Made by a program: the position numbers and the translations under genes. Below are positions 1 to 13,525 of a DNA stretch of 64,000 bases, one piece after another (within the stretch, counting starts at the first letter, position 1; each line of letters begins with the position of its first letter). Origin of the DNA: a virus; UHGV virus genome UHGV-0277313. One strand, given 5' to 3'. The notes below the pieces were generated by a model that saw only the letters and a list, made by a program, of their open reading frames with translations, searched no databases and was not told the DNA's origin.

Positions 1-103
1 CTAACAATGCATAAAAAGTAACCGCAGTATCCTCTTCAGCAAAAACACAAGACATCTCTTCAACCAACTTTCCTTCAGAATAAAACTGTGAAATTGTTGA
101 CAT
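1..103 (-). CDS. hypothetical protein, 5' portion; gene continues beyond the window start
   Basis: Minus-strand ATG at 101-103 preceded by GGAGGT Shine-Dalgarno (plus 111-116). The frame reads MSTISQFYSEGKLVEEMSCVFAEEDTAVTFYALL... and runs off the window edge. Not in the supplied ORF track because it is truncated. Confidence 0.3.
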   Translation of the reverse strand, partial: MSTISQFYSEGKLVEEMSCVFAEEDTAVTFYALL

Positions 104-203
104 TAAAGAAACCTCCGATTCCTTGACTTGTTCAACCGCTTTTTGCGGGTAATGAATAACTTATCAAAGAATCGAAGGTTTTGCAAGAAGTATTTTTAAA
201 ATT

Positions 204-446
204 TTAAAATTTATATGTTCCAGACCACACACCTGTTGCATCTTGGACATGCAAAGTCACGTCACTTAACTCAACAGTATCATTCTTAAAAACTTCAATT
301 TCATTGCCTTTTCCTAAAACTTCATCTTGCGATTGCATCATTCGCAAAGATTTAGAAATATTTTCTTTTAAAGGTTTTATTTTGAAACGTTTTTTCTTTT
401 TATCAACTGTGATTTCAGCTTCATCATTTTTAAAATAAAAAATCAT
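204..446 (-). CDS. hypothetical small protein (80 aa)
   Basis: ORF with GAGGT SD 5-6 nt upstream of the ATG at 444-446. Same strand and tight spacing with neighbouring early genes. No recognisable motif. Confidence 0.4.
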   Translation of the reverse strand: MIFYFKNDEAEITVDKKKKRFKIKPLKENISKSLRMMQSQDEVLGKGNEIEVFKNDTVELSDVTLHVQDATGVWSGTYKF

Positions 447-453
447 TTTAACC

Positions 454-699
454 TCAAATGATTGGTGAATTTAGAATTTTAACAATATAGTCATCTAGAA
501 ACAATGTCAACAATTCTCTTTTGTTAACAACATCAAATTTTTTATAAAGCTTTTTAATTTGATATTCTAAAGTTGGTTTAATAATATTTAACTCTTTTGA
601 AATTTCTGAATTTGAATACCCATAAACCATTAACTTTAGAATGCTTCTTTCTTTTTCATCTGTATCTTGCAATGCAAAATAAATAGCATCTTTTGACAT
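454..699 (-). CDS. LuxR/GerE-type helix-turn-helix regulator (sigma region-4-like), 81 aa
   Basis: Sequence KERSILKLMVYGYSNSEISKELNIIKPTLEYQIKKLYKKFDVVNKRELL fits the LuxR/FixJ/GerE HTH signature (ExE-L-L-x-G-x-S-N-x-EIa-x-L-x-I-x-x-T-V-x-x-h-x-x-I-x-x-KL-x-V-x-NR). Start ATG 697-699 immediately follows the TAA (700-702) of the upstream ORF, in the same frame. Confidence 0.55.
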   Translation of the reverse strand: MSKDAIYFALQDTDEKERSILKLMVYGYSNSEISKELNIIKPTLEYQIKKLYKKFDVVNKRELLTLFLDDYIVKILNSPII

Positions 700-1491
700 T
701 TATTTAGGCTTTCTTAATCCGTAATTGCGCCATGTATCATCAGCAACAGCAATACTTTTTAAAATTAAACTGGGATCTACACCTAATTTAATCAAATTCA
801 TTCCAATAATTTCTTTTATTTTACTCATTTTGGAATACTCAATACCTAATTCTTCGCAAATTACTTTTGCTGGTATTCCTTTATTTTTATGTGGATTCTT
901 TGGGTTTGTAATTCGAAGCCATTTTTCATATCTGGCTTCCGTACTATCTGAAGGTGAAATTGATTCTTTTAAATAACCGATTGTTTCGTACGGCATTTCA
1001 GATACTTCTAAATTCTGAATCAATCTTTCTACTAGATTATTTGCTTCTGAAACACTTTCTTCATCTTGATAGTATGTGATTTGGATAGGTGCATCTGTCG
1101 TACTAAATTCATAAATATCTTTTTCTGGATTTCGTTCATCTGAATCATCTAAACTATTGATGAACATTGAAGTATCTTTTTTCTTTGAAAATTCCATACT
1201 TAAGTCTGCAAATCTATTATGAATAATTCTAACAGCCATAAATATCAAATCTTGAATAGTTGCATCCTCACGTAAAATTGTTAATTCAAATTCATATTGT
1301 CGAAACACTCTCAAAGCCTTCAGCTTTAACTCTTGTTTGTAATCGTCAGTCGTTCCTATAGCGTTTCTTAAACGGAATGCAAATTTATTAATATATTTAT
1401 CAAGATGCTGAATAGCTAGCAAACAACAATTATCATAATTTCGACATGTTAAAATAATCTTTTTTTCATCTTTTGTCAGTTGTCTAGGCAT
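700..1491 (-). CDS. putative sigma-70-family-like transcription factor (region-2.2-like segment), 263 aa
   Basis: N-terminal ILTCRNYDNCCLLAIQHLDKYINKFAFRL...DYKQELKLKALRVFRQYEFE resembles sigma region 2.1-2.2 (DLIQEGNIGLMKAVDKFE pattern). A second HTH-like stretch is ICEELGIEYSKMSKIKEIIG. SD AAGGGA lies upstream of the ATG at 1489-1491. Assignment from motif recall only. Confidence 0.35.
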   Translation of the reverse strand: MPRQLTKDEKKIILTCRNYDNCCLLAIQHLDKYINKFAFRLRNAIGTTDDYKQELKLKALRVFRQYEFELTILREDATIQDLIFMAVRIIHNRFADLSMEFSKKKDTSMFINSLDDSDERNPEKDIYEFSTTDAPIQITYYQDEESVSEANNLVERLIQNLEVSEMPYETIGYLKESISPSDSTEARYEKWLRITNPKNPHKNKGIPAKVICEELGIEYSKMSKIKEIIGMNLIKLGVDPSLILKSIAVADDTWRNYGLRKPK

Positions 1492-1573
1492 AAGTTATCC
1501 CTTTAACTTGATTTAAAATTCAAGTTAAAGTTTAACGGCTACAAATATTATGTCAAACAAAAAAATTACAAAC

Positions 1574-2536
1574 TTAAGATTGCGTTATTTTATTGAAACT
1601 CTTGAAGTATAATTTTAAGAAATGTCTGTACTCAATTCTCTTTTTATACCTATCAGAATACGAATCAGGCTTCATATTATCAGGATCTTCGTCGCCATTT
1701 AATTTAATTATTGTAACTGTTCCATTATAAAATTTTCTTAAGGTTTTGTAATTATTTATAATTTCAGCTCGTGAAACATCCCCGTCGAAACTAAACGAAA
1801 TTTCCGTTGGGTTTTTCGACGCGATAATTCTTGCTTGCGAATCAGCTAATACTTTACCAAAAATAGATACTGCAGTCACATCTTCAGGTGTATTACGGTT
1901 AGCTGCAATACCCGAAAAAACACCTTCAGTAATAATTACTTTACCATTTGTTGATACATTCTGAATATTCCAAACAGCAAATGATTTGTGACTTCCTTGA
2001 GGATTGATATATTTTGCTTCAGGGTTTTCTGATACATAATCACGTGCAACTAAATAAACAACGTTATTATTCAAATCAAACGTCGGAACAATAATCCTTC
2101 CCCGATATCTTCCTTGCCCAATACGGATATCGTATTTTTTAATTTCTTCAAACGTTATATTTCTTGAACGCAGATACTCAACTGCATTAACAAATGAACG
2201 ATCTATTTTTACTGAAATATTGTCCAAATCAATCAATTCAGCTTGAATTAACAGACCACTCGGTGATGTATATTTTATACGCTGTTTAGTATCAATGTTG
2301 TCTAGTTTATATCTTAATAATGCACCACCATTTACATAACCTTGTAATAGCTGATCTACTCTTCCAGACCACCCACATCGATAACAATGAAATACGTTTT
2401 TTTCAAGTGATAAACTTAATTTATAATCATCATAACGTTTACCTAACATTTTACAATTTGGACAATGTGTCACATATTGATCGACATTCGATGTTAAGCT
2501 TACATCTCTCAAACTTTCAACGCGTACATCACACAT
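1574..2536 (-). CDS. 61: DNA primase (T4 gp61-like; zinc-ribbon + TOPRIM)
   Basis: N-terminal zinc-binding motif HCPNCK...(21 aa)...HCYRCGWSG, followed by a TOPRIM-like core (IIVPTFDLNNNVVYLVARDY, ...ITEGVFSG...). Lies immediately downstream of the helicase, as in the T4 41-61 order. Confidence 0.75.
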   Translation of the reverse strand: MCDVRVESLRDVSLTSNVDQYVTHCPNCKMLGKRYDDYKLSLSLEKNVFHCYRCGWSGRVDQLLQGYVNGGALLRYKLDNIDTKQRIKYTSPSGLLIQAELIDLDNISVKIDRSFVNAVEYLRSRNITFEEIKKYDIRIGQGRYRGRIIVPTFDLNNNVVYLVARDYVSENPEAKYINPQGSHKSFAVWNIQNVSTNGKVIITEGVFSGIAANRNTPEDVTAVSIFGKVLADSQARIIASKNPTEISFSFDGDVSRAEIINNYKTLRKFYNGTVTIIKLNGDEDPDNMKPDSYSDRYKKRIEYRHFLKLYFKSFNKITQS

Positions 2537-3411
2537 TATTTAACACCATTAGCAGCTTTTTTCATTTCCTTAACGTCATACGGCTCACATTCTTTCACTT
2601 GATTAGCCGCTTTATCAAAGTTTACATACACAGTTGTATTTGTTTTACCACGACGGGCTTTAGCAACATATAATCTCATTTTACCATTGTCAGACTCTTC
2701 ACGAGTTTGGTTTAATGTAACAATGCCATATGCCACATGCGCTTTTCTTGATGAATCAGCTAACATGTCTTGCGATGCCACTTCATTGTCTTCAGTGTTC
2801 CATGCAGCCTTTCCTAACTGTGAACCTGTAACAACAGGACAATTAAATTGGTCAGCTAACGCCTTCAAGTCATAAAAAATTGTACCCATTTCTTCATATG
2901 TACTTTCAGATGACCGTCGCGTTTGTTTGTTCGGTAACATTAAATCTGCATAGTCTACAATAATTAAACCAGGTTCAAAATTTTCCAAAGAATGTAACTT
3001 CGTCAAATATGTTCTCAAATGATTAGCAGATACTGTTTTATTAGAATAATAAATAGTCCTTACATTAGGTGCCCAATATTTAATTTTCTGCACACGCTGT
3101 TTGTATTTTTCAATTTGTGATTCATCCAATAAATCTCTCATTGACATACCAGTTGAACAGGAAATGATATTTGATAACACTTCCTTTTCAGACCACTCAA
3201 ACGAAAAATACACAACCGGGCGTCTCTGAAACATTGCCTGATATGCCAAAAAGCTCAAGAACTTACTTTTTCCACGACCAGGCGCTCCGCAGTTTTTACT
3301 GTAAAAACAATGACTTAGCTCGAAGTTGTGATACTTATTATTCACCGTCAAATTGTAAACAGGCACCTTTTCATCAAGGTGAATGCGTTTTTTATTTACT
3401 AATTTCATCAA
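2536..3411 (-). CDS. 41: replicative DNA helicase (gp41/DnaB family), C-terminal gene fragment; begins with a 40-aa split-intein C-half then the Walker-A extein
   Basis: Residues 1-40 MMKLVNKKRIHLDEKVPVYNLTVNNKYHNFELSHCFYSKN match the DnaE-type Int-C consensus (VYDIGVERDHNFALKNGFIASN) and end in the terminal Asn. The +1 Cys starts CGAPGRGKSKFLSFLAYQA, a DnaB/gp41-like P-loop, followed by a RecA-like core. Own strong SD AAGGAAG sits 7 nt upstream of the ATG at 3411. Confidence 0.8.
   Translation of the reverse strand: MMKLVNKKRIHLDEKVPVYNLTVNNKYHNFELSHCFYSKNCGAPGRGKSKFLSFLAYQAMFQRRPVVYFSFEWSEKEVLSNIISCSTGMSMRDLLDESQIEKYKQRVQKIKYWAPNVRTIYYSNKTVSANHLRTYLTKLHSLENFEPGLIIVDYADLMLPNKQTRRSSESTYEEMGTIFYDLKALADQFNCPVVTGSQLGKAAWNTEDNEVASQDMLADSSRKAHVAYGIVTLNQTREESDNGKMRLYVAKARRGKTNTTVYVNFDKAANQVKECEPYDVKEMKKAANGVK
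3292..3411 (-). mobile_element. split intein C-fragment (Int-C, 40 aa) of the helicase
   Basis: See CDS 2536..3411. Block F/G-like VYNLTV...YHNFELSHCFYSKN, then the +1 Cys. Confidence 0.7.
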
Positions 3412-3518
3412 TTACTTCCTTACTTAAACCCAACTTCAGAACATAATCCAAATCGTTTTTGTATAAAAACTTCAGTGATGTTATCACAAAATCAGACAGT
3501 TCGTCAACCTTTAATGTT

Positions 3519-4475
3519 TTAAAATTCATCATCTTCCGACAAATCTTCCGCTTTTTTATATGCAACACCTTCTGACCATATAACTTTTTCATCACCTTTT
3601 TTTGGATTTGTAATTCTAAATTTATGATCAGGTGTACATTTAATTGTATACCCATTATCAAAAGTTAATTCGATCAATTCGTCTGTATCTCTAGTTTTCC
3701 ATACATTATAAATATCAGTTTCGAAAGAGTTTCCATTCTCATCAACTGAATAGGCTTTTTTATCTTTAAAGTTGTTTACCAAATCTTTGATTTCGATGAA
3801 ACCTTTATTTGTTTTCACTTTTGTATCACCTGTTAAACAGAATACATACAGTTCACCTTTTGCAATGCCGCCACCAAAAGCGTCATCTAATGAAGGAATG
3901 CCTGTTGTGAACATATTATCTTTGCCATAACTGTCACGTAACATTTGAGGTAATTCATCAAGTGAACTAACCAAATCTAACCCAAGATTTGTTCCTGCAC
4001 CAACAGACAATGCATCATCGATAATAGATACGGCTTTTTCGTAATCATTTGTTTTATCATACATATCGACCAATTTACCAATTGCATCACGCATTGCAAC
4101 GCTTTTAGCAAAATCTAAAGCTTGATCTTTTATGTACTGTGCGTCTTCAATAACAGTTGTTGTTAAGCTACGAATCACTGAAGCAAAATTTTCTTGTTCG
4201 ACAATAGGAATTGCATATTTACTCGTATAATTATTCAATTCAGTCAACAAAACAGATTCAGTCGGTTTTGTATGATACTGTTCGTAATATGAAATAATCC
4301 ACTGACAAATATTTTGCAAATAGACATTATCAAAAAAAGAAGGTTTAATTAATTCCACGCCAACTGTTGATAAATAGGTGAAATCTTGAAATAATAATGC
4401 AACAATCTTTTTCTGCATTTCAACTTCAAAATTATATGTTGTATCCTGTACAACTTCTTCGTTTTCATTGTCCAT
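3519..4475 (-). CDS. 41: replicative DNA helicase (gp41/DnaB family), N-terminal gene fragment (212-aa extein) fused to a 106-aa split-intein N-half
   Basis: Extein ends ...GIPSLDDAFGGGIAKGELYVF (DnaB-like segment preceding the P-loop). Then CLTGDTKVKTNKGFIEIKDLV...AYSVDENGNSFETDIYNVWK...KCTPDHKF (intein blocks A and B, TxxH), very similar to DnaE split-intein N-halves as I recall them. ORF stops after ...EDDEF. No contiguous frame into the C-fragment. Confidence 0.8.
   Translation of the reverse strand: MDNENEEVVQDTTYNFEVEMQKKIVALLFQDFTYLSTVGVELIKPSFFDNVYLQNICQWIISYYEQYHTKPTESVLLTELNNYTSKYAIPIVEQENFASVIRSLTTTVIEDAQYIKDQALDFAKSVAMRDAIGKLVDMYDKTNDYEKAVSIIDDALSVGAGTNLGLDLVSSLDELPQMLRDSYGKDNMFTTGIPSLDDAFGGGIAKGELYVFCLTGDTKVKTNKGFIEIKDLVNNFKDKKAYSVDENGNSFETDIYNVWKTRDTDELIELTFDNGYTIKCTPDHKFRITNPKKGDEKVIWSEGVAYKKAEDLSEDDEF
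3522..3839 (-). mobile_element. split intein N-fragment (Int-N, 106 aa) of the helicase
   Basis: Cys1 of CLTGDTKV lies at residue 213 of the ORF. Block B TPDHKF present. ORF terminates about 106 aa later, typical Int-N size. Confidence 0.7.
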
Positions 4476-4514
4476 AACTTTTTCCTTTTAAAAGAGAACT
4501 ACGGTTACCTTATA

Positions 4515-6479
4515 TCAACCTATTCTCGATTCACCCATTTTTTTAATCAACATTTTAAATTGTTCTTCATTTATTTCTGGAATTCCTTCGTTTTCTAGAT
4601 GTTGTTTCCTTTCTCTAGTCCAAGACTCAAGATATGGATGTCCTTTGTCATTAAAATCTACAAACACTGAACAGTTCAATCCTTTATCTTTTCTTCTGGT
4701 TACGCGGCCGATTCTTTGAACATGTGAAATAATATTTTTTCCAGCATCCATCAAGATACCAACATCAAATTCAGGAACATCAATACCTTCATTAAAAACA
4801 ACGTTTCCAACAATTACACGATATCCTTCTTCACGAATTGCCTTTTTAATTGTTTCAGCATTTCCCTTGCGTTCGACAACAACATGTTGAACAATACCTT
4901 TTTTTGTTTTTTCAGTCGCGTCAATAGCTTCATAAATCGTATTACCACCACACATAAATAAAGCTTTAATTCCTTTATCCTTCATTTCACGTACTATTGC
5001 TTTTCCATGTTCAATACGATTAACCATAACCAAAATTTTTAAATTATTCTTGTAACAAAATTCAATACAACGATATGCTGCTTCATTCCTATTAAAACTT
5101 TCTGCAACATATTTCTTATATACATCTGTGCAAGATTTACAAAACACAAATGATTTTGGTGCATAATTAATATAATATGAATAAACTAAAGACGAATATC
5201 CTTTATCACGAAGATACTTTGATGAAATATAATAAAACGAATTACCAAACAACGCTTTTAAAACAATATCATCAACACATTGCCCACCTTCTTTAAAAGG
5301 CGATGCTGTAAACCCAATTAAATATTCAGGATTCGCAACCATTGCGGGTATTGCAATGCTCTGACAGCTGCCGTGATGACATTCATCAACTATAATAGCT
5401 CTTACACTTTTCAGATATCTCATAATTTTTGGATCGTTACGTTTCACCATATTCCAAACTAAATTATTAGTTGAAACAATAATATCTGAATTATCCAAAA
5501 CAGGGTTTCTGTTAAGATATTCAATTTTACGGTCAATACCACGAAGTTTAGCACGACCTTCAATTTGATTTAAAATATTTGTTCGATTATTAATAACTAA
5601 AATTTTCCCATCAATTAATTTAAACAAAGATGCAATGATTTCAGTTTTACCAGAATTATGTACAATCACACCGTTGCTTAATGCAAAATTATGCAAATCA
5701 CAATCAACCTCAATATCATATACAGGAATAGGGTCTACATAATGTTCAGCAAATACTTGCTCAACAACACGACTCCCATAAACACCAGCTACAGGTGATT
5801 CAGCTAAAAGATTGATAGCTTCTACATATTTTCCATTACTTAAAAGGAAAAGATGATCGGGCGTGCATTCAACTTTAACACCATCATTAAATTTAATCTT
5901 CAATGTATCTTTAACATATTTTGACAAATGTGCCGAAACAATTGAATGAAACTTTCCATCTGAACAAAAAACAGACTTTCCATTAAAATTCATACTTAAT
6001 GAACTTAAAGTTTCAAAACCAGTATTTGTTAAAATTAAAGTATCGCCAACAAAACAACCTGTCGCAGCTTCACAGATACCATGTTTATTAATCAAACATT
6101 TTAAAGTACCAATCAATTGATGTTCACGTACTTCAAAACCAGGTGAAGCTAGTGCCATTTCATTATACGCTTGCCTAACCTTTTGCATTGTTGACTTTAC
6201 ATCAATATCAATTACTTTACGCTGATCGATTACAGTTTCAAAATGAAAATACGGTAAAATCAAATCATCAACACAACCTGATTGTACATATAAAGAAGTT
6301 TTTGTATTTTCAACTTCCATATACAATGTAATCAAACTCTGCCCATCAGCTGACAGTAATGTCAAACGTTTTTTTATACGGTTAATAAAATCAGCATCTT
6401 CATCTGAAATTAAAGACCACATCGATTTCGTAATCGTTAACATTTTATTTCTCTCAATTAGACTGTGTTTGAAAAACAA
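4515..6479 (-). CDS. uvsW: SF2 DExH-box ATP-dependent helicase, UvsW-like, interrupted by an in-frame 134-aa mini-intein in the Walker-A motif
   Basis: Extein junction ...KHGICEAATG|intein|SGKTEIIASL restores AATGSGKTE (helicase motif I). Motif II is VDECHHG. C-terminal QRIGRVTRR resembles the UvsW QTIGRVLRK. Spliced product would be about 520 aa. Confidence 0.65.
   Translation of the reverse strand: MFFKHSLIERNKMLTITKSMWSLISDEDADFINRIKKRLTLLSADGQSLITLYMEVENTKTSLYVQSGCVDDLILPYFHFETVIDQRKVIDIDVKSTMQKVRQAYNEMALASPGFEVREHQLIGTLKCLINKHGICEAATGCFVGDTLILTNTGFETLSSLSMNFNGKSVFCSDGKFHSIVSAHLSKYVKDTLKIKFNDGVKVECTPDHLFLLSNGKYVEAINLLAESPVAGVYGSRVVEQVFAEHYVDPIPVYDIEVDCDLHNFALSNGVIVHNSGKTEIIASLFKLIDGKILVINNRTNILNQIEGRAKLRGIDRKIEYLNRNPVLDNSDIIVSTNNLVWNMVKRNDPKIMRYLKSVRAIIVDECHHGSCQSIAIPAMVANPEYLIGFTASPFKEGGQCVDDIVLKALFGNSFYYISSKYLRDKGYSSLVYSYYINYAPKSFVFCKSCTDVYKKYVAESFNRNEAAYRCIEFCYKNNLKILVMVNRIEHGKAIVREMKDKGIKALFMCGGNTIYEAIDATEKTKKGIVQHVVVERKGNAETIKKAIREEGYRVIVGNVVFNEGIDVPEFDVGILMDAGKNIISHVQRIGRVTRRKDKGLNCSVFVDFNDKGHPYLESWTRERKQHLENEGIPEINEEQFKMLIKKMGESRIG
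5655..6056 (-). mobile_element. mini-intein (134 aa, no homing-endonuclease domain) inside the UvsW-like helicase P-loop
   Basis: CFVGDTLILTNTGFE (block A, Cys1) ... VECTPDHLF (block B) ... VYDIEVDCDLHNFALSNGVIVHN (blocks F/G, terminal HN), then +1 Ser. Same sequence family as the split intein in the gp41-like helicase. Confidence 0.7.
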
Positions 6480-6559
6480 CGTACCACATCTAATGCTATA
6501 TTGTCAATACAAAATGCAATAAATATTATAATTTATACATCATTTTTCAATAAAATAAC

Positions 6560-7873
6560 TCACTTATCTAAACTATTATAAATTTTATATAAATTTACCA
6601 TAGATTTAGATGACTTGAGTCTAAAAACTTCAGAATCAAAAGATTCTAAAGAACGTCTATATTTCACTTTAGATGTTTTTGTTATATCAAACAGTTCTTT
6701 CCAATTCTTATAAACCCAGCTTGATGATTCCTTCCATAGGTTGAACAAACTGGTTTTGTCTATAAGCTCTGGATAGAACTGACCTTTGATATATTTGAAC
6801 ATTGCTCTACGGGCAATTTCCAAACTTGCTGCTATTGGATCTGGTGCTTCATTACATATGTTTCCAATGAATGAAGAATAAACAGGGTTGACTTCGACGA
6901 AGTCTATTTTGTTTAGAAGAAAGTGCTTTCTTAAAGCAGAAACCAGTGCTTCATGTTTCCATTTATTCTTCGTTAATCTATTGAATGATTTACCTTTTCC
7001 TGTATTCCCAGTTTTGAAAGACAAATCTTCAATGCCAAATTTACCAACTTTATAATACTTACATTTCTGGATGATATCTTTAGCTATCTCTTTAAGCTCA
7101 AAGATTTGTTTGTTATTCTGGTGTTTACTTTTAGCATCATTTGAAGATTTGTGTAAGTTCTTTGTGAAATATGACAAATCATACTGCTCTTCAAGCAAAA
7201 TCTTTCTCTTATCACCAGTCCATTTAGAAATAGAAAATCCAATATAGTTTGGATTCATATCTATAGCACCAACTATATTTGGATTTCCAACATAATTGGA
7301 ACAATAGATTTTGGAATCATCAAAGGTTATGCAGATTCTATCCAACTTTAATTCAACACTAAAGTTAGATAACTTCTGCTTACATTGTTCTTCAAGGTTG
7401 ATTAATTCATATAAATAATTCTTATGTAAAATAGGCAATTTCAAGTTGATATGTTTTGATTTAGAAAACTTAAAGATTATCTGGTTATTCGAAATATCCA
7501 ACTGGAATTTACGGTTTCCGCCTTTTGACGTTTCACCTTGTGAATAACCCCCTAAAAGCCTATTTTCTTTGAAAATATCTTTATCTAACTTATGTTTTAA
7601 TCTTTGATAAAAAGAAAATTTGCCACCGAAAATAACCTTTTCTTTATTGGTTAAAAATATGTAATTTGCTTTCTTAATAGCACACTGAATAAACCAAGAA
7701 TCCGAAGGTACATTTGATAAACTTTTAGAAAGTAATCTAATGTCTTTTTCAGATTTGGAATCTTTATATCTGTTGAAAGCATATCTTACCATATTAGACG
7801 ACTTCCGAATTTCATCTTTGATGAAGCTTCGGTCGTCATCTGAACATGTATATGGTAAGTTAATCGTTTTCAA
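6560..7873 (-). CDS. TnpB/OrfB (IS200/IS605-family)-like RuvC-fold nuclease, lacking the usual C-terminal zinc finger (437 aa)
   Basis: RuvC-I GAIDMNPNYIGFSI (Asp), RuvC-II KFGIEDLSFK (Glu), then NRLTKNKW...FVEVNPVYSSFIGNIC, then NEAPDPIAASLEIARRA (RuvC-III Asp). N-terminus is TnpB-like (MKTINLPYT...). No CxxC...CxxC between RuvC-II and RuvC-III. Confidence 0.65.
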   Translation of the reverse strand: MKTINLPYTCSDDDRSFIKDEIRKSSNMVRYAFNRYKDSKSEKDIRLLSKSLSNVPSDSWFIQCAIKKANYIFLTNKEKVIFGGKFSFYQRLKHKLDKDIFKENRLLGGYSQGETSKGGNRKFQLDISNNQIIFKFSKSKHINLKLPILHKNYLYELINLEEQCKQKLSNFSVELKLDRICITFDDSKIYCSNYVGNPNIVGAIDMNPNYIGFSISKWTGDKRKILLEEQYDLSYFTKNLHKSSNDAKSKHQNNKQIFELKEIAKDIIQKCKYYKVGKFGIEDLSFKTGNTGKGKSFNRLTKNKWKHEALVSALRKHFLLNKIDFVEVNPVYSSFIGNICNEAPDPIAASLEIARRAMFKYIKGQFYPELIDKTSLFNLWKESSSWVYKNWKELFDITKTSKVKYRRSLESFDSEVFRLKSSKSMVNLYKIYNSLDK

Positions 7874-7943
7874 ATTTAAAACCTTATCAAACTTTTTGTC
7901 TTTATTTGTTATAAATTATAAAAAATTAAAAATCAAGACTTGT

Positions 7944-8720
7944 TTAAAAAATAATATAAGCGTAATTAGATAAACCTGTTGCTTCAAACATGTATGCAGT
8001 TTCCTGTGTATCTTCCAATTTACAAACAGGTGTGTACTTAAAAGTTGTTCCTTCTCTATCACGTGTATATACAGAAATACCTTGATTCAGATACATGATG
8101 ACTTCCTGACGAGATTTAAGAAATTTCTTTTTATATTTAGGTACAGACATTACAGAAGCAATTTCTTCATTTGTAAAACCATACACTTTCATCAAATCAC
8201 CTAATGTGACAGGGCAATCTTCTTTAGGATTATTTTGTTCAAATTTAGCAATCACATTTTTTAAAGACTTCAACAATTCATTTTTTTCAGATGACAACTG
8301 AACTCTTTTTTCATCAATGATTACTTCTTTTTCTTTCTTTTTAGGCAAACTATTAAATGTTGGTTTAACTTCTTTAGCCTTTTCTGTCTTTTTGGGTTTC
8401 GACTTTTTAGTCTCAACCTTCTTAACAGCGACCTCTTTTTTCTTTTCAGGTTCATGTTTTTTAGCTTCAGCTTTTTCTTTAATAGCTTTAGCTGGGCCAT
8501 ACCCTTCAGCATATCCCCATTTAGTTAATGCAACTTTAGCAGCACGATAACGATTTGCTTCAGTTACAACAATTGAATTACCACAATCATTACACAAAAT
8601 AGTTTGAGTAATTGATTTATCTTTATTCTTTACATATTTAGCAGTGATGTTATGTTTTCCACATTTAGGACAATTACCCGCCTGAACATTCAACGCTTCA
8701 CTATCTTTTCTTTTAGCCAT
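7944..8720 (-). CDS. zinc-ribbon protein with lysine-rich (histone-H1-like) linker and a C-terminal globular domain (258 aa)
   Basis: N-terminal CPKCGK...(20 aa)...CNDCGN, a C4 ribbon. Middle KEKAEAKKHEPEKKKEVAVKKVETKKSKPKKTEKAKEVKP low-complexity K/E tract. About 110-aa C-terminal domain of unknown fold. Lies between two TnpB-like genes. Confidence 0.5.
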   Translation of the reverse strand: MAKRKDSEALNVQAGNCPKCGKHNITAKYVKNKDKSITQTILCNDCGNSIVVTEANRYRAAKVALTKWGYAEGYGPAKAIKEKAEAKKHEPEKKKEVAVKKVETKKSKPKKTEKAKEVKPTFNSLPKKKEKEVIIDEKRVQLSSEKNELLKSLKNVIAKFEQNNPKEDCPVTLGDLMKVYGFTNEEIASVMSVPKYKKKFLKSRQEVIMYLNQGISVYTRDREGTTFKYTPVCKLEDTQETAYMFEATGLSNYAYIIF

Positions 8721-8993
8721 TTAAAAACACCTTTAAAAGTTAAATATCAAATATGCTTTATCATTACATAAATTTTGCTAAATAGCAACAGAAAAGTTCT
8801 TTATTTATTTGTTGTTGACAAAGGAATATGAAAACAAATGAATGAACTTGATTTGCTGATTGAAGAATTTCAAAAAGAAATTAGAAATAAACTTGAAGAA
8901 AACAATCAAAAAACAAACTTTGCTAAATTGTTTGAAGATTTCATGATGACTATTGATAAAAAGGCGTCTAGCTTCAATTAAATACCTCAAATA

Positions 8994-10355
8994 TTAAAAC
9001 TTATTAACATCTTGCATAAAGAAATTAACGAATCTTAAAGTTTTAGACTGAAAGACTCTTTCATCAAGAGGAAACCTATATTTAAATTTAGATTTCTTTA
9101 ACTCGGAATGAATCTGTTGCCAATTCACAAAACCAACAAAGCACTTTACTTCTTCCAACGAGTGTTTTACTTTGTCTAATAATGATTCTGTTAAATCTGG
9201 AAAGATCACATTCTTCGTTTTGGCTTTAATCTTCTGTATGTATTGAAGATTAAACTCATAGCATCTTCTACTGATTTCAATAGAAGATAACACCATGTCT
9301 GGTAATTCTAAATCTCTATAGACTAGATTACCAATAGTGGATGAATATTGTGGAGATATTTCTATAAACTTAATTCCATAAATATTGCATCTCTTTTTAA
9401 GATTATTGACTAATTTATTTCTACACCAATTATTATTTACAAGTCTATTGAAATTCTTTCCTTGTTTATTATCCTTGGACTTAATAGACAAATCCTCAAC
9501 ACCAAAACATTCGCAATGATAATGTTTTGCTATATCAACAAGAAACTTGGCTACTTTCAATGTTTCATATTGACGTTTATTGTTAAGATATTTTCTTTCC
9601 TTTGATGTTGAAGGTAATTTTAATTTCTTGAGTTTATACTCAATATCATTGATATTCTTTAATGATACTACACCTGAATTTATAGCCTTTAATTCATCAG
9701 ATGATTTCCAGTCTACGACTGACCAACCAACATAATTTGGGTTCATATCGATAGAAAATATTCTGTTTGATATTGGTTTAAATATCTTTTCTGACAATAT
9801 CATTTCATCAAATGAAATATATACAAATTTTTTATCTAATTTGTATGTGATTGGAGTATCTTTCAACTGTTGATGAATATATAATTTTTGTAATACTTTA
9901 ATTCTATTACCAACACCAATAAGTTTTAAGTGTATTCTGTTTTTAATTGTTGGACTAAAGTTGACTGAATAGCAATCTTCAGATAATCTGAAGAATCTAT
10001 TTCCCCTATAGTTTCTATCACCAATTGAACACAAAGATACTAATCTTTTTTCTTTAAATTCTTCATTTGATATGTTGTGTCTAAATCTTTGTTCGAATAG
10101 ACGTTTGCCACCAAATAAAACAGTTTCTTCTTTCTTCAACAAAAATGAAGCATCTTTTACACAAGATTGTCTGAACCATGATTTCATTAAATCAAGATTA
10201 TTGAATTGTAAATGTTTACAAGCAGTTTCAGATACGCCATCTTTTAATCTATTATAAAACAAATGAAGAAGATTATTATATTGCCTCTGATAATCAGCTA
10301 TCAACTGATTATCAGATTCTTTTTCTGCAATATACTTAATCTTCAATGTTATCAT
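8994..10355 (-). CDS. TnpB/OrfB-like RuvC-fold nuclease, second diverged paralog, also lacking a zinc finger (453 aa)
   Basis: IFSIDMNPNYVGWSV (RuvC-I), ECFGVEDLSIKS (RuvC-II), FIEISPQYSSTIGNLVYRDLELPDMVLSSIEISRRC (RuvC-III Asp). N-terminal MITLKIKY... is typical of TnpB. Paralogous to 6560..7873. Confidence 0.65.
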   Translation of the reverse strand: MITLKIKYIAEKESDNQLIADYQRQYNNLLHLFYNRLKDGVSETACKHLQFNNLDLMKSWFRQSCVKDASFLLKKEETVLFGGKRLFEQRFRHNISNEEFKEKRLVSLCSIGDRNYRGNRFFRLSEDCYSVNFSPTIKNRIHLKLIGVGNRIKVLQKLYIHQQLKDTPITYKLDKKFVYISFDEMILSEKIFKPISNRIFSIDMNPNYVGWSVVDWKSSDELKAINSGVVSLKNINDIEYKLKKLKLPSTSKERKYLNNKRQYETLKVAKFLVDIAKHYHCECFGVEDLSIKSKDNKQGKNFNRLVNNNWCRNKLVNNLKKRCNIYGIKFIEISPQYSSTIGNLVYRDLELPDMVLSSIEISRRCYEFNLQYIQKIKAKTKNVIFPDLTESLLDKVKHSLEEVKCFVGFVNWQQIHSELKKSKFKYRFPLDERVFQSKTLRFVNFFMQDVNKF

Positions 10356-10425
10356 TAAATAATTCCTTAACTTACCTATTATTCTACATTATCATCTTTT
10401 TAAGAAAAATACAAGAAAGATTTAT

Positions 10426-10635
10426 ATGATCTTATACAAAATTCCTTTTACCAACAAAGCTTCATATGAAACAATTTCAAAAGTGTTTGATGATAAAGAA
10501 AATAGCAACAGGTTTTTACAACCAACATGTGAACATATTGAAGATTTCTTAAAAGATGAAGGTGTTGAAGGCCTTGATGCTGATTCTCAACAAATATGTA
10601 TTGGCTGGGAATTTAAACTAGAAGATATTTTGTAA
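10426..10635 (+). CDS. hypothetical small acidic protein (69 aa), lone plus-strand ORF in the early block
   Basis: ORF ends 8 nt before a strong bidirectional terminator. Weak SD (aagaaag). No homology recognised. Confidence 0.3.
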   Translation: MILYKIPFTNKASYETISKVFDDKENSNRFLQPTCEHIEDFLKDEGVEGLDADSQQICIGWEFKLEDIL

Positions 10636-10643
10636 ACAATAAA

Positions 10644-10671
10644 GGCGGGAATTGAACCCGCCTTTTCTTTT
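10644..10671. terminator. bidirectional rho-independent terminator between convergent genes
   Basis: GGCGGG-aattgaa-CCCGCC stem-loop, followed by TTTTCTTTT on the plus strand and by a U-rich tract (ttattgttta) on the minus strand. Confidence 0.7.
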
Positions 10672-11056
10672 AATCGTTACGCCCCAAATCAGAATCAATA
10701 CCCATTGCTTCAAGGGTTCGCATTTCTTCTTTTTTACGTAAATACTCTTCAGTCAACTTTTGTTGTGCCTGTTCCCATTCTTCACGAGCTGTTGCTGAAG
10801 TTTTCCATTCTTCCGCTGAACATGTATAAAAGGCTTGTGGATGTGGTTTATCAAGTGTGTATTCAACAGGGAATACCATTTGACCGCGTTCTTCATCCCA
10901 CATAGCGGCTGGCATTAAATTACACATACAGCCTGGAACTGACAAGATTTCGTCAACAGATTGAAAATCGGCTGTTTTCAATCCCATTTCAACATACGTC
11001 CCATCTTTTTGACGAATCTTTGATTTACCTTTTTCTTCTTTTAGTTCAATAGACAT
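10670..11056 (-). CDS. hypothetical protein (128 aa)
   Basis: Long ORF in the early operon context. No motif recognised. Confidence 0.45.
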   Translation of the reverse strand: MSIELKEEKGKSKIRQKDGTYVEMGLKTADFQSVDEILSVPGCMCNLMPAAMWDEERGQMVFPVEYTLDKPHPQAFYTCSAEEWKTSATAREEWEQAQQKLTEEYLRKKEEMRTLEAMGIDSDLGRND

Positions 11057-11080
11057 TTAGATCCACTTTCATTCTAGAGT

Positions 11081-12118
11081 TTAAGACAATTGTTCAATGA
11101 TTTTATCAACAGTAATTTCTTTCATTTCTTCATCAGAAGGAACGTCTTCCAACAAGGAACAATAATCAGAAAGATATTGTTTTAAATCACAATTTAATTC
11201 CTTGATATGTTTAGGTTCAGTTTTTAAAGCTAATTCATAACACAACGGAATCATTTTTAAAGGCAATCCTAAACAATAACTATTAATAAAATTTTCTATA
11301 CGTTTAACATGTTGAAATCCGTTAAATTCAAATTTTGTATATCTAGTTACTCCACTTTTAAGTTCCAATAAAGCAAACATTTTAGGTGACTTGCTAGGTA
11401 ATATATTAAACATGTTATTCTTTAATAAATCATGTTTACTCATGAACTTCAGCAGATAATTCATATACGATATTTTACCACCACGCGGAAGATTCTTTCC
11501 TTCAGTCCATAAACGATACCATATACGAATGCAAGGCAAATCTTGTTTACCTGTTTCTGAAATAACATCAGTTTTCCAATTTACACGTTTATTTGAATAT
11601 AATAAACCATCAATTAAATTGACTTGTTTTCTTTCAGACAACGCAGGGCCGTCATAATACAATTTAACCTTCCTAATAATTTCAGGCATTTCAGTTTTAT
11701 CAACTTGCTGATCCGCGCTTCTTTTTGCCGTATAACGAACACGAACAGGTTTGCGAATATCAATTAAAGGCAAACCTTCTCTTTCCAAAACTTTATTCGC
11801 TTCTGGAATTAAATCATAGGCTGTATAGCTTTTACCTTTATATAAATAATGTCTATATCCGTTTGGTGTTATCTTGTTATATAATAGATTTAAAACAAAT
11901 CTAAAAGTATCGCTCGTTTCCCAATCAAGAATTTCATCTTTTACACAAAAGAAATCCATATAAAAATTATACAATTGAGAATTATTACCACGCTGATATT
12001 CAATCTGCATAGGCTTTAAATCATACTTTACAGCTAAATCTGAAATAGGGATACCAAAGGCTAATTCCTTTAATAACTGATCCCTTAAATCATCAGTTAA
12101 TAGAGATGCTTTAGGCAT
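11081..12118 (-). CDS. hypothetical protein with N-terminal HTH-like segment (345 aa)
   Basis: N-terminal LRDQLLKELAFGIPISDLAVKYDLKPMQIEY looks like a helix-turn-helix. The remainder is unassigned. Confidence 0.45.
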   Translation of the reverse strand: MPKASLLTDDLRDQLLKELAFGIPISDLAVKYDLKPMQIEYQRGNNSQLYNFYMDFFCVKDEILDWETSDTFRFVLNLLYNKITPNGYRHYLYKGKSYTAYDLIPEANKVLEREGLPLIDIRKPVRVRYTAKRSADQQVDKTEMPEIIRKVKLYYDGPALSERKQVNLIDGLLYSNKRVNWKTDVISETGKQDLPCIRIWYRLWTEGKNLPRGGKISYMNYLLKFMSKHDLLKNNMFNILPSKSPKMFALLELKSGVTRYTKFEFNGFQHVKRIENFINSYCLGLPLKMIPLCYELALKTEPKHIKELNCDLKQYLSDYCSLLEDVPSDEEMKEITVDKIIEQLS

Positions 12119-12199
12119 GAAATAGAACTCATCATTAGATCAATTAGGATTTACAATTACCTAAAGAACAATTACGAATTCATCTTAAAGAAATTAATT

Positions 12200-13525
12200 C
12201 TACAATTTTGCCTTAAAGACGGCATCTTTTATTTTATTATAAATAGATTGAAATTGTTCAACAATCCCCATAGTATGATTTAATTGTTTGTTGCTTGTTC
12301 GACCAAACATAATATATTGAACGGCATCTTTAAAGGCACCTGAACGATAATGAATATTCTTGCACCACATCTTAAAATTCTGTGTAACAACATGAATTAC
12401 AGTTGAATATTTATAATTCGTACTCAAAGCAATTTTAGTAATGTTTTCATATAGATATCTTAAATCTGCAACAATAACATCATCTAAAACATCACCATCA
12501 AAACGAAAACCTAATAATTGGCAATTTTCTAGAAATTCATTGAATGTACGCATACAAGTAAAGTTATGTATATTTGGATGTGCATCAACGAAATTTTGAA
12601 TTGTCGGATCTAATCCTTCTGTAACAAATTCAACAGGAATCGTTCTTTTCTGGCCACCAATTAATAAATTTTTCTTCAGTCTTTTGTGCTCTTTTAAAGT
12701 ACGTTGCATTGCAACCTTTTCCAAACGTTTACTATGTTTTGTAAACAATTTGGCAATATTCACATCAGGAATCAATAATGAAGGAACATAATTCGCTTCA
12801 TCAAATGTTTCAGGCTCACCTTCACATGTTTTAATACCCAACCCTTTACGAGTACCATCACCATGTGTTTTACAAAAATAGTGATATGCCACTAAAACAT
12901 TGATAATATTACCCCATTCTAATGAACCAAAACCAAATTCCTTATCGTCAAACCAACCATTTTGTGTTTGAATTGCCATGATGTCATAATCAATTGCATC
13001 TAATCTGGCAAGAATAATAGCTAAAGCGCAATCATGTGTATGAAAATCTTGCACCTTAACTAGTTTTTTATGTACAAATTCTTTTAATTCCAAAAAGACA
13101 TGATTCACTAAATTTGGGTTTTTAGCTAATATATCAATTGCATCTTCAGGTTTATATCTATTCAATGCTTCAATATCATATTGAACAACATTACCTTTAA
13201 TTACCTTACTTTTTTGTACTTTATATGTGCCAAATTGATCCGCCAGTTTTTTAAATACACTTCTCTTATTTTTAATTTTTCCACCACGATCAATACACCA
13301 ATCCATATTGGCAATCTTCATCTTTTCTGGTGCATAATATTGTAAAAATGTCGGGGTGAACCAACCGTAATGACTAGACATCGGCAACCCTGATTTAACA
13401 TACTTCTTCGTGAACTGACGGCCACCTAATTTGTTCATAGTTGTTACTGCAATTTTAGACAAGTCTTTTTTCTTATAAAAGACTATTTCTTCACGTAACT
13501 TTTTTAGAACATTAATAGGTAACAA
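12200..13525 (-). CDS. hypothetical protein (441 aa); first gene of the leftward early operon
   Basis: Long ORF. The caller start is TTG at 13525 and the first in-frame ATG is at residue 30, so the start is uncertain. Contains an FHTHDCA histidine cluster. No confident family assignment. Confidence 0.45.
   Translation of the reverse strand: MLPINVLKKLREEIVFYKKKDLSKIAVTTMNKLGGRQFTKKYVKSGLPMSSHYGWFTPTFLQYYAPEKMKIANMDWCIDRGGKIKNKRSVFKKLADQFGTYKVQKSKVIKGNVVQYDIEALNRYKPEDAIDILAKNPNLVNHVFLELKEFVHKKLVKVQDFHTHDCALAIILARLDAIDYDIMAIQTQNGWFDDKEFGFGSLEWGNIINVLVAYHYFCKTHGDGTRKGLGIKTCEGEPETFDEANYVPSLLIPDVNIAKLFTKHSKRLEKVAMQRTLKEHKRLKKNLLIGGQKRTIPVEFVTEGLDPTIQNFVDAHPNIHNFTCMRTFNEFLENCQLLGFRFDGDVLDDVIVADLRYLYENITKIALSTNYKYSTVIHVVTQNFKMWCKNIHYRSGAFKDAVQYIMFGRTSNKQLNHTMGIVEQFQSIYNKIKDAVFKAKL

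Follow-up and report, generated by a model that had tools for sequence, protein, structure and literature searches.

The DNA helicase gene of the phage genome UHGV-0277313 carries a mini-intein of 134 amino acids (aa) in its nucleotide-binding P-loop. The DNA analyzed, the window, comprises 64,000 nucleotides (nt) of this genome, and coordinates refer to it unless a contig is named. The insert is very probably a canonical and functional class-1 mini-intein, an old resident that has been inherited vertically and belongs to a lineage distinct from the split intein in the adjacent DnaB-type helicase gene. It is a routine case of a known rule, the preference of inteins for the P-loops of replication ATPases. 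P-loops represent the classic intein location, and about 70% of inteins reside in ATP-binding proteins (PMC5050341, PMC4760082).

The host gene, located on the minus strand (4515..6443), encodes a superfamily 2 (SF2) DNA helicase precursor of 642 aa plus stop, with ResIII and Helicase_C domains interrupted by the intein. A first, sequence-only reading of the DNA had placed the intein at 5655-6056, within helicase motif I (AATG|SGKTE). These coordinates proved exact, the strand is minus, and the insertion point was borne out by translation and by the alignment of orthologues. The same alignment delimits the N-extein (6057..6443, minus strand), whose 129 aa end with ...KHGICEAATG, the first half of the Walker A motif. 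The intein follows as 134 codons (CFVGDTLIL...SNGVIVHN), read on the minus strand from 6056 to 5655, with Cys1, the block B motif T65-P-D-H68 and the block F/G motif VYDIEVDCDLHNFALSNGVIVH133-N134. Translation of 5655-6056 on the plus strand meets stop codons. The C-extein (4515..5654, minus strand) comprises 379 aa plus stop and opens with Ser+1 (codon 5654-5652) of SGKTEIIASL.... The intein and its flanks lie within one uninterrupted open reading frame (ORF; 4515..6479). Translation starts at the ATG at 6443 (MLTITK...), which is common to all orthologues, and the TTG at 6479 is an extension by the ORF finder.

Profile searches with the 134 aa alone identified both ends of an intein. The NCBIfam model intein_Nterm (TIGR01445) scored 34.1 bits at a cut-off of 24.5 (E 4e-8), and intein_Cterm (TIGR01443) scored 26.5 bits at a cut-off of 15.6 (E 5e-6). 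A phmmer search against 1.84 billion representatives yielded 1555 matches at E<=1e-3. The top-scoring matches were inspected and all showed boundaries of the intein type (C...HN and then S or C). The best non-allelic matches were mini-inteins with the flanks EGDSA|...|SA, presumably a GyrB-like motif, and ...HN|SKD..DA..G, and mini-inteins of other helicases. Sequence matches in the Protein Data Bank (PDB) were a bacterial intein-like (BIL) domain and then the DnaE, RadA, NrdJ-1, DnaB and gp41-1 inteins, and the alignment of the insert with solved mini-inteins covers its full length. AlphaFold2, supplied with a 37-sequence alignment (A3) free of artificially fused split-intein sequences, predicted an all-beta HINT (Hedgehog/intein) module with a predicted local distance difference test score (pLDDT) of 97.3 and a predicted template modelling score of 0.89. 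The 50 best Foldseek matches of this model in the PDB were all inteins or BIL domains, with template modelling (TM) scores of 0.71-0.87 bar one domain-swapped entry. Compared with the NrdJ-1, MchDnaB-1, NpuDnaE, gp41-1 and Mtu RecA inteins, the model reached TM scores of about 0.8. In alignment A3, C1, T65, H68 and N134 are invariant and H133 nearly so. The contiguous 134-aa mini-intein of the sequence-only reading is therefore upheld by both NCBIfam models and by the predicted HINT fold. The claim that it lacks a homing endonuclease domain agrees with its length, the compact model and the full-length alignment to mini-inteins; no nuclease family of Pfam or NCBIfam matched the insert, which has no room for such a domain. 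An intein hidden Markov model, applied to all stop-to-stop ORFs of at least 40 aa in the six frames of the window, found nothing besides the helicase intein and both halves of the split intein in DnaB.

Orthologues were gathered with the conceptually spliced helicase as query and then aligned (alignment A1). Related contigs were obtained from ENA and from Logan metagenome assemblies (one record is named gut metagenome), the largest comprising about 314 kb. Six orthologues (P0012 and P0015-P0019; 46-66% identity) are devoid of exactly these 134 residues and have the unbroken loop ATG|SGKTE or PTG|FGKTE, so the segment is not a normal domain of the helicase. One of them, P0012, has an extein 66% identical to that of the window and no P-loop intein. 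Alleles at the same site were found in 13 proteins. All have 134 aa and the arrangement AATG|C...TP[DE]H...HN|SGKTE, in which C1, TP[DE]H, HN and S+1 are invariant; the C-terminal His133-Asn134 followed by Ser+1 is kept throughout. Cysteines beyond Cys1 and Cys64 vary among the alleles, position 118 being C, S, G or N.

The conserved residues point to the common four-step HINT reaction. The helicase would be translated as a 642-aa precursor, and a Walker A motif split by 134 residues should render this precursor ATPase-dead. An N-S acyl shift at Gly-1/Cys1 would be followed by transesterification onto Ser+1. Cyclization of Asn134, assisted by His133, would release the intein, and an O-N shift would form the Gly-Ser bond. 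The expected products are a helicase of 508 aa with an intact AATGSGKTE loop and the free 134-aa intein.

Intein and extein have diverged to the same extent. Between the window and the related contig L002, synonymous divergence (dS) amounts to 0.95 in the intein and 0.99 in the extein, and the ratio of nonsynonymous to synonymous divergence (dN/dS) to 0.056 and 0.058, respectively. Compared with contig L005, dS is 0.048 in the intein and 0.052 in the extein. The GC content is 31.3% and 31.4%, respectively. In a neighbour-joining (NJ) tree of the exteins, all intein-bearing alleles fall outside a basal intein-less clade (197/200 replicates, with outgroup), and P0012 is the sole intein-less sequence among them. 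The simplest reading of these data is one old acquisition, vertical co-divergence with the helicase and purifying selection for splicing competence, perhaps with one precise loss. The intein would have been kept splicing-competent in these uncultivated phages since its acquisition, because the P-loop of the helicase would not survive a loss of splicing or an imprecise deletion. Devoid of an endonuclease, the intein cannot home alone.

Some points weigh against this interpretation. Splicing is deduced from the sequence and a predicted structure. The Pfam model Intein_splicing (PF14890) stays under its gathering score (26.7 versus 35.8), and the best PDB sequence match is a BIL domain of Clostridium thermocellum (2lwy, E 3.9e-6, full length), not an intein. 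For the deeper pairs, dS is close to saturation. The extein tree places P0012 with low support (46/200), which makes one gain plus one loss indistinguishable from other histories.

An intein retained for long without an endonuclease, under purifying selection as strong as that on the helicase, could have been recruited as a post-translational switch. Splicing that depends on conditions, e.g. on cysteine redox state, would then delay or gate the helicase during infection. The intein lies in the catalytic P-loop, and the unspliced helicase would be off. Conditional splicing of helicase inteins has a reported precedent in mycobacterial DnaB (PMC6195587), and Novikova et al. make the case for a selective retention of inteins in P-loops (PMC4760082). 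However, an entirely selfish element that had become trapped in an essential motif would be expected to leave the same pattern. Apart from Cys1 and Cys64, the cysteines differ from allele to allele, and the closely related phage helicase P0012 does without the intein. A regulatory role is considered unlikely, and an old, vertically inherited mini-intein is preferred.

The adjacent DnaB-type helicase is encoded by two genes on the minus strand, separated within a split intein. The product of the first gene (3519..4475, 318 aa) consists of an N-extein of 212 aa and an N-terminal intein half (IntN) of 106 aa (3839 to 3522) that closes with the acidic tail ...AEDLSEDDEF before the stop. A spacer of 110 nt follows (3409..3518, minus strand), with a Shine-Dalgarno-like motif, AAGGAAG, shortly 5′ of the next ATG. 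The second gene (2536..3408) opens with a basic stretch and encodes a C-terminal intein half (IntC) of 39 aa (3408 to 3292, MKLVNKKRIHLDEKVPVYNLTVNNKYHNFELSHCFYSKN) and the C-extein, which starts at CGAPGRGKS (DnaB_C, 1.1e-22). Neither an endonuclease gene nor a remnant was detected in the spacer by tblastn with the GIY-YIG proteins of relatives. The two-ORF form is kept in many independent contigs at 36-99% identity. Intein-less DnaB proteins of 455-461 aa, in which GELYVF|CGAPGRGKS is uninterrupted, are also found, and none of 25 matches is a DnaB with a contiguous intein. The split intein in DnaB is real, as the sequence-only reading had held, since the two ORFs recur in independent samples. 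Its statement that both P-loops carry inteins applies to the helicase, where the insert lies inside the loop. It does not apply to DnaB, where the intein precedes Walker A, a single residue separating its insertion point (GELYVF|CGAPGRGKS) from the first Gly.

The two inteins of the window had also been described as sisters of the same family and as a natural pair of mini- and split intein. As class-1 HINT inteins, they occupy or adjoin the Walker A motifs of two neighbouring replication genes, and a BLASTP comparison of the two gave an E-value of 3e-16. Nevertheless, their derivation from each other by transfer between the adjacent P-loop genes is improbable. Pairwise alignment showed a direct identity of 26-29%, whereas inteins of unrelated host proteins are 31-44% identical to the helicase intein. 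More than 50 inteins from unrelated hosts outscore the DnaB intein against the helicase intein; the phmmer domain score of the DnaB intein puts it in 72nd place, counted within the top 150 library representatives alone. Distances and NJ bootstraps were calculated from a 138-column alignment of 58 inteins, in which the other inteins had been picked by similarity to the helicase intein, a choice that biases the forward rank and leaves the reverse one unaffected. Ordered by distance to the helicase intein, the DnaB intein comes 56th of 57, and the reverse rank is 45th of 57. The contiguous helicase-site alleles form a clade in 262 of 300 bootstraps. A clade of both lineages with a bridging split intein appeared in 4 of 300, and one of the two alone in none. 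The insertion points differ as well, G|SGKT inside the loop versus F|CGAPGRGKS before it. Finally, the occurrence of one intein is independent of that of the other, since all four combinations are present in related contigs: the helicase intein is absent and the DnaB split intein present in a contig of 181,027 bp, the reverse holds for one of 32,219 bp, both are absent from one of 99,976 bp, and both are present in one of 122,843 bp. The window does not contain a mini/split pair of one lineage.

What does hold is a weaker link between the lineages. The bridging split intein, encoded by P0172 and P0020 at the helicase site of a relative, is about equally similar to both, being 45% identical to the mini-intein of the window helicase and 46.5% to the split intein of the window DnaB. 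It has a DnaB-like N-terminus and split junction and helicase-like indels and last 25 or so residues, and P0172 is the closer of only two matches of the DnaB N-fragment via the intein part alone. These similarities speak for the sister relationship and are outweighed by the ranks and bootstraps above. In the same bootstraps, the P0172+P0020 intein clusters with DnaB split inteins in 260 of 300 replicates and with the contiguous helicase inteins in none.

The fractured helicase locus (L006 420-1959 and L001 1-1280) combines a split intein with an endonuclease. P0172 (468 aa, contig L006) comprises the helicase N-extein, IntN and, in frame, a GIY-YIG endonuclease (Pfam GIY-YIG 26.5 bits at a cut-off of 22.6; phrog_314, 4.6e-28). 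P0020, from contig L001 of another sample, comprises IntC followed by SGKTE, and its start overlaps the P0172 stop by 47 nt in a different frame. An artefact of the contig end was considered, as the P0020 gene starts at nt 24 of L001, and was rejected. Nucleotides 2-70 of L001 encode the tail of P0172 in the other frame, and in L006, an independent contig, the ORFs overlap by the same 47 nt. The exteins of P0172+P0020 are identical to the intein-less P0019 at 129 of 130 and 370 of 375 positions, and both are sisters on the extein tree (200/200). Such near-identical exteins of a split and an empty allele are the pattern expected of recent homing. The IMG/VR collection was scanned for relatives of P0172 and none were found.

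It is tentatively proposed that the TG|SGKTE site forms a natural series of an empty state (P0019), a contiguous 134-aa intein (window) and a split intein with GIY-YIG endonuclease (P0172+P0020). The split-intein/endonuclease module may have hopped between the adjacent genes and then recombined with, or converged on, the resident type. The phage population offers empty, contiguous and split states of one site. If the proposal is true, these states would allow a direct study of the moves of inteins to new host sites and of the origin and spread of split inteins.

The occurrence of GIY-YIG endonucleases associated with inteins in this phage group raises the question of current mobility of the window intein, either by homing with an endonuclease acting in trans or by recombination during co-infection. 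The P-loop intein is present in some related phages and absent from others, and a second mini-intein in helicase motif II differs between near-identical sister alleles. However, the synonymous divergence of the P-loop intein equals that of its host gene. No near-identical pair of exteins differs in the presence of the P-loop intein, and relatives of the group's GIY-YIG endonucleases were not found in the 64-kb window by tblastn. Mobility at present is very improbable, and the old, vertically inherited resident remains the preferred interpretation.

BIL domains reside in variable, often secreted proteins and usually miss the +1 nucleophile. A non-splicing HINT/BIL domain or a decayed intein, permanently retained in the helicase, would explain the 2lwy match (TM 0.87 to the model) and the low Pfam score, yet it is hardly credible, as all splicing residues including Ser+1 are invariant across alleles, dN/dS is 0.06, the insert occupies a conserved catalytic motif with seamless, colinear insert-free orthologues, and 134 aa in Walker A would be hard to square with ATP binding.

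Class-1 P-loop mini-inteins of comparable design are known from mycobacteriophage TerL1-a/b, DnaB site b, MCM site a and RFC-S site a (PMC5050341, PMC4760082). They resemble the window intein as HINT-only elements of about 130-150 aa in the Walker A motif of replication or packaging ATPases. Cys1, TxxH, HN, a +1 nucleophile and the sporadic occurrence among relatives are also shared. The window intein differs in its host, an SF2 helicase of the XPB/UvsW type from an uncultivated phage. It is inserted between Gly and Ser of TG|SGKT, whereas the "classic" position of Kelley et al. is GK|T (PMC5050341). The cultured Bacillus phage vB_BceM-HSE3 has an intein at the homologous helicase position of gp113 (MF418016.1; LATG|CFTGDT...FVKN|SGKTE). 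Its extein is only about 26% identical, and the penultimate residue of its intein is Lys instead of His. In GenBank, gp113 is recorded as "ATP-dependent helicase" with no intein annotated. The window helicase, too, seems to lack motif I as long as its intein goes unrecognized. The metagenomic protein P0120 is likewise interrupted at the homologous position (MCTG|CFVGHT...FVHN|SGKSE), and its intein is 36% identical to that of the window. For protein engineering, the window intein represents a compact 134-aa element with a Gly-1/Ser+1 junction.

The fractured genes gp41-1 and gp41-7 (Dassa et al. 2009, PMC2677866) are matched by the window DnaB and by the L006/L001 helicase, which have adjacent ORFs for N-extein-IntN and IntC-C-extein. 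The oppositely charged junction tails are alike, and a GIY-YIG gene lies between the halves in contigs L007 and L009. The window DnaB has no endonuclease between its halves, as is the case for gp41-7 (PMC2677866). In contrast to the fractured genes, the window helicase intein is contiguous, and the GIY-YIG endonuclease of L006 is fused in frame to IntN instead of being free-standing. The neighbouring and related split inteins with charged junction tails are candidate gp41-1-type tools.

The DnaB locus shows further variation among relatives. The IntC of the window ends in ...FYSKN|C, where Lys replaces the usual penultimate His, while L007 has ...FTHN|C and L009 ...FVTN|C. The DnaB halves are separated by GIY-YIG ORFs of 313 aa in L009 (8459-9400) and of 212 aa in L007 (7001-7639); in the window and L002, only a spacer of about 100 nt is present. 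The 212-aa ORF is a chimera of a GIY-YIG-like N-terminus and a C-terminal zinc-ribbon/RuvC-III part of TnpB (Cas12f1-like_TNB, E 1.7e-17). The GIY-YIG ORF of L009 and the P0172 endonuclease share a C-terminal module of 52 aa with 54% identity.

The helicase gene matched the Pfam families ResIII (2.5e-9) and Helicase_C (3.3e-8). The spliced helicase matched phrog_16 (9.6e-50), whose label "DNA helicase" is no more specific. Its best solved relative is XPB/Rad25 (E 5e-14). T4 UvsW (2oca) followed with an E-value of 3.7e-5, without any stretch significant alone. The earlier designation as UvsW-like is loose. The gene order helicase, DnaB, primase and GerE-like gene is kept, with RecA downstream in relatives. 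Megablast of window 1500-8000 against 50,697 phage records gave no match, which indicates that this collection holds no cultured close relative. Inteins are also mentioned in a paper on the "Jug" gut jumbo phages (PMC12880540), to which the window could not be linked. An Rfam scan of window 1-13000 yielded nothing.

The second mini-intein of close relatives, 132-166 aa, is located in helicase motif II (IIVDE|CF.GSTKV...LVHN|CHHG) and is precisely missing from the window. The empty motif II/DExH site VDE|CHH (5379..5384, minus strand) has its junction between 5382 and 5381, according to alignment A1 (P0002, P0005, P0011). In a blastn comparison of the window with L005, a presence/absence of 498 bp (L005 9066-9563) was flanked by regions of about 98-99% identity. 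Near-identical helicases that differ only by the motif II intein were found as the pairs P0001/P0002, P0004/P0005 and P0006/P0011. Three such pairs imply a recent gain or loss of this intein, which has no endonuclease domain. In evolutionary terms, three different inteins in two adjacent genes have been gained and lost independently.

Two further insertions of about 1.4 kb occur upstream of the helicase, at 6549-7949 and 8975-10439, and are absent from L002 and from the approximately 98%-identical L005. Their minus-strand ORFs (6560-7873, 437 aa; 8994-10355, 453 aa) encode paralogues with 32% identity (E 3e-57). Weak signals of the TnpB/Cas12 type were obtained for both (phrog_12300 "transposase", 9.6e-5; Cas12f1-like_TNB, 0.03; C2c1 RuvC-like, 0.04). 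By eye, D/E/D RuvC-like motifs are recognizable and a zinc ribbon is not. An imperfect direct repeat of 10 nt, TTAT(A/T)TTATT, borders the first insertion, and the second replaces 195 bp. The AlphaFold2 model of the 437-aa protein was unusable (pLDDT 37.6), and a PDB sequence search with the 453-aa paralogue found nothing. A near-identical homologue of the 437-aa protein is encoded in L003 at a different genomic position. L008 carries a canonical IS605-type TnpB of 398 aa (2234-3430; HTH_OrfB_IS605, OrfB_IS605, TNB) a few genes upstream of its helicase, to which the 453-aa ORF of the window showed no similarity in BLASTP. In L009, a 181-kb contig, a GyrB-like protein of 1041 aa and a GyrA/topoisomerase IV-like protein of 599 aa (399-6014) both have Intein_splicing matches, suggesting that this phage group is generally intein-rich.

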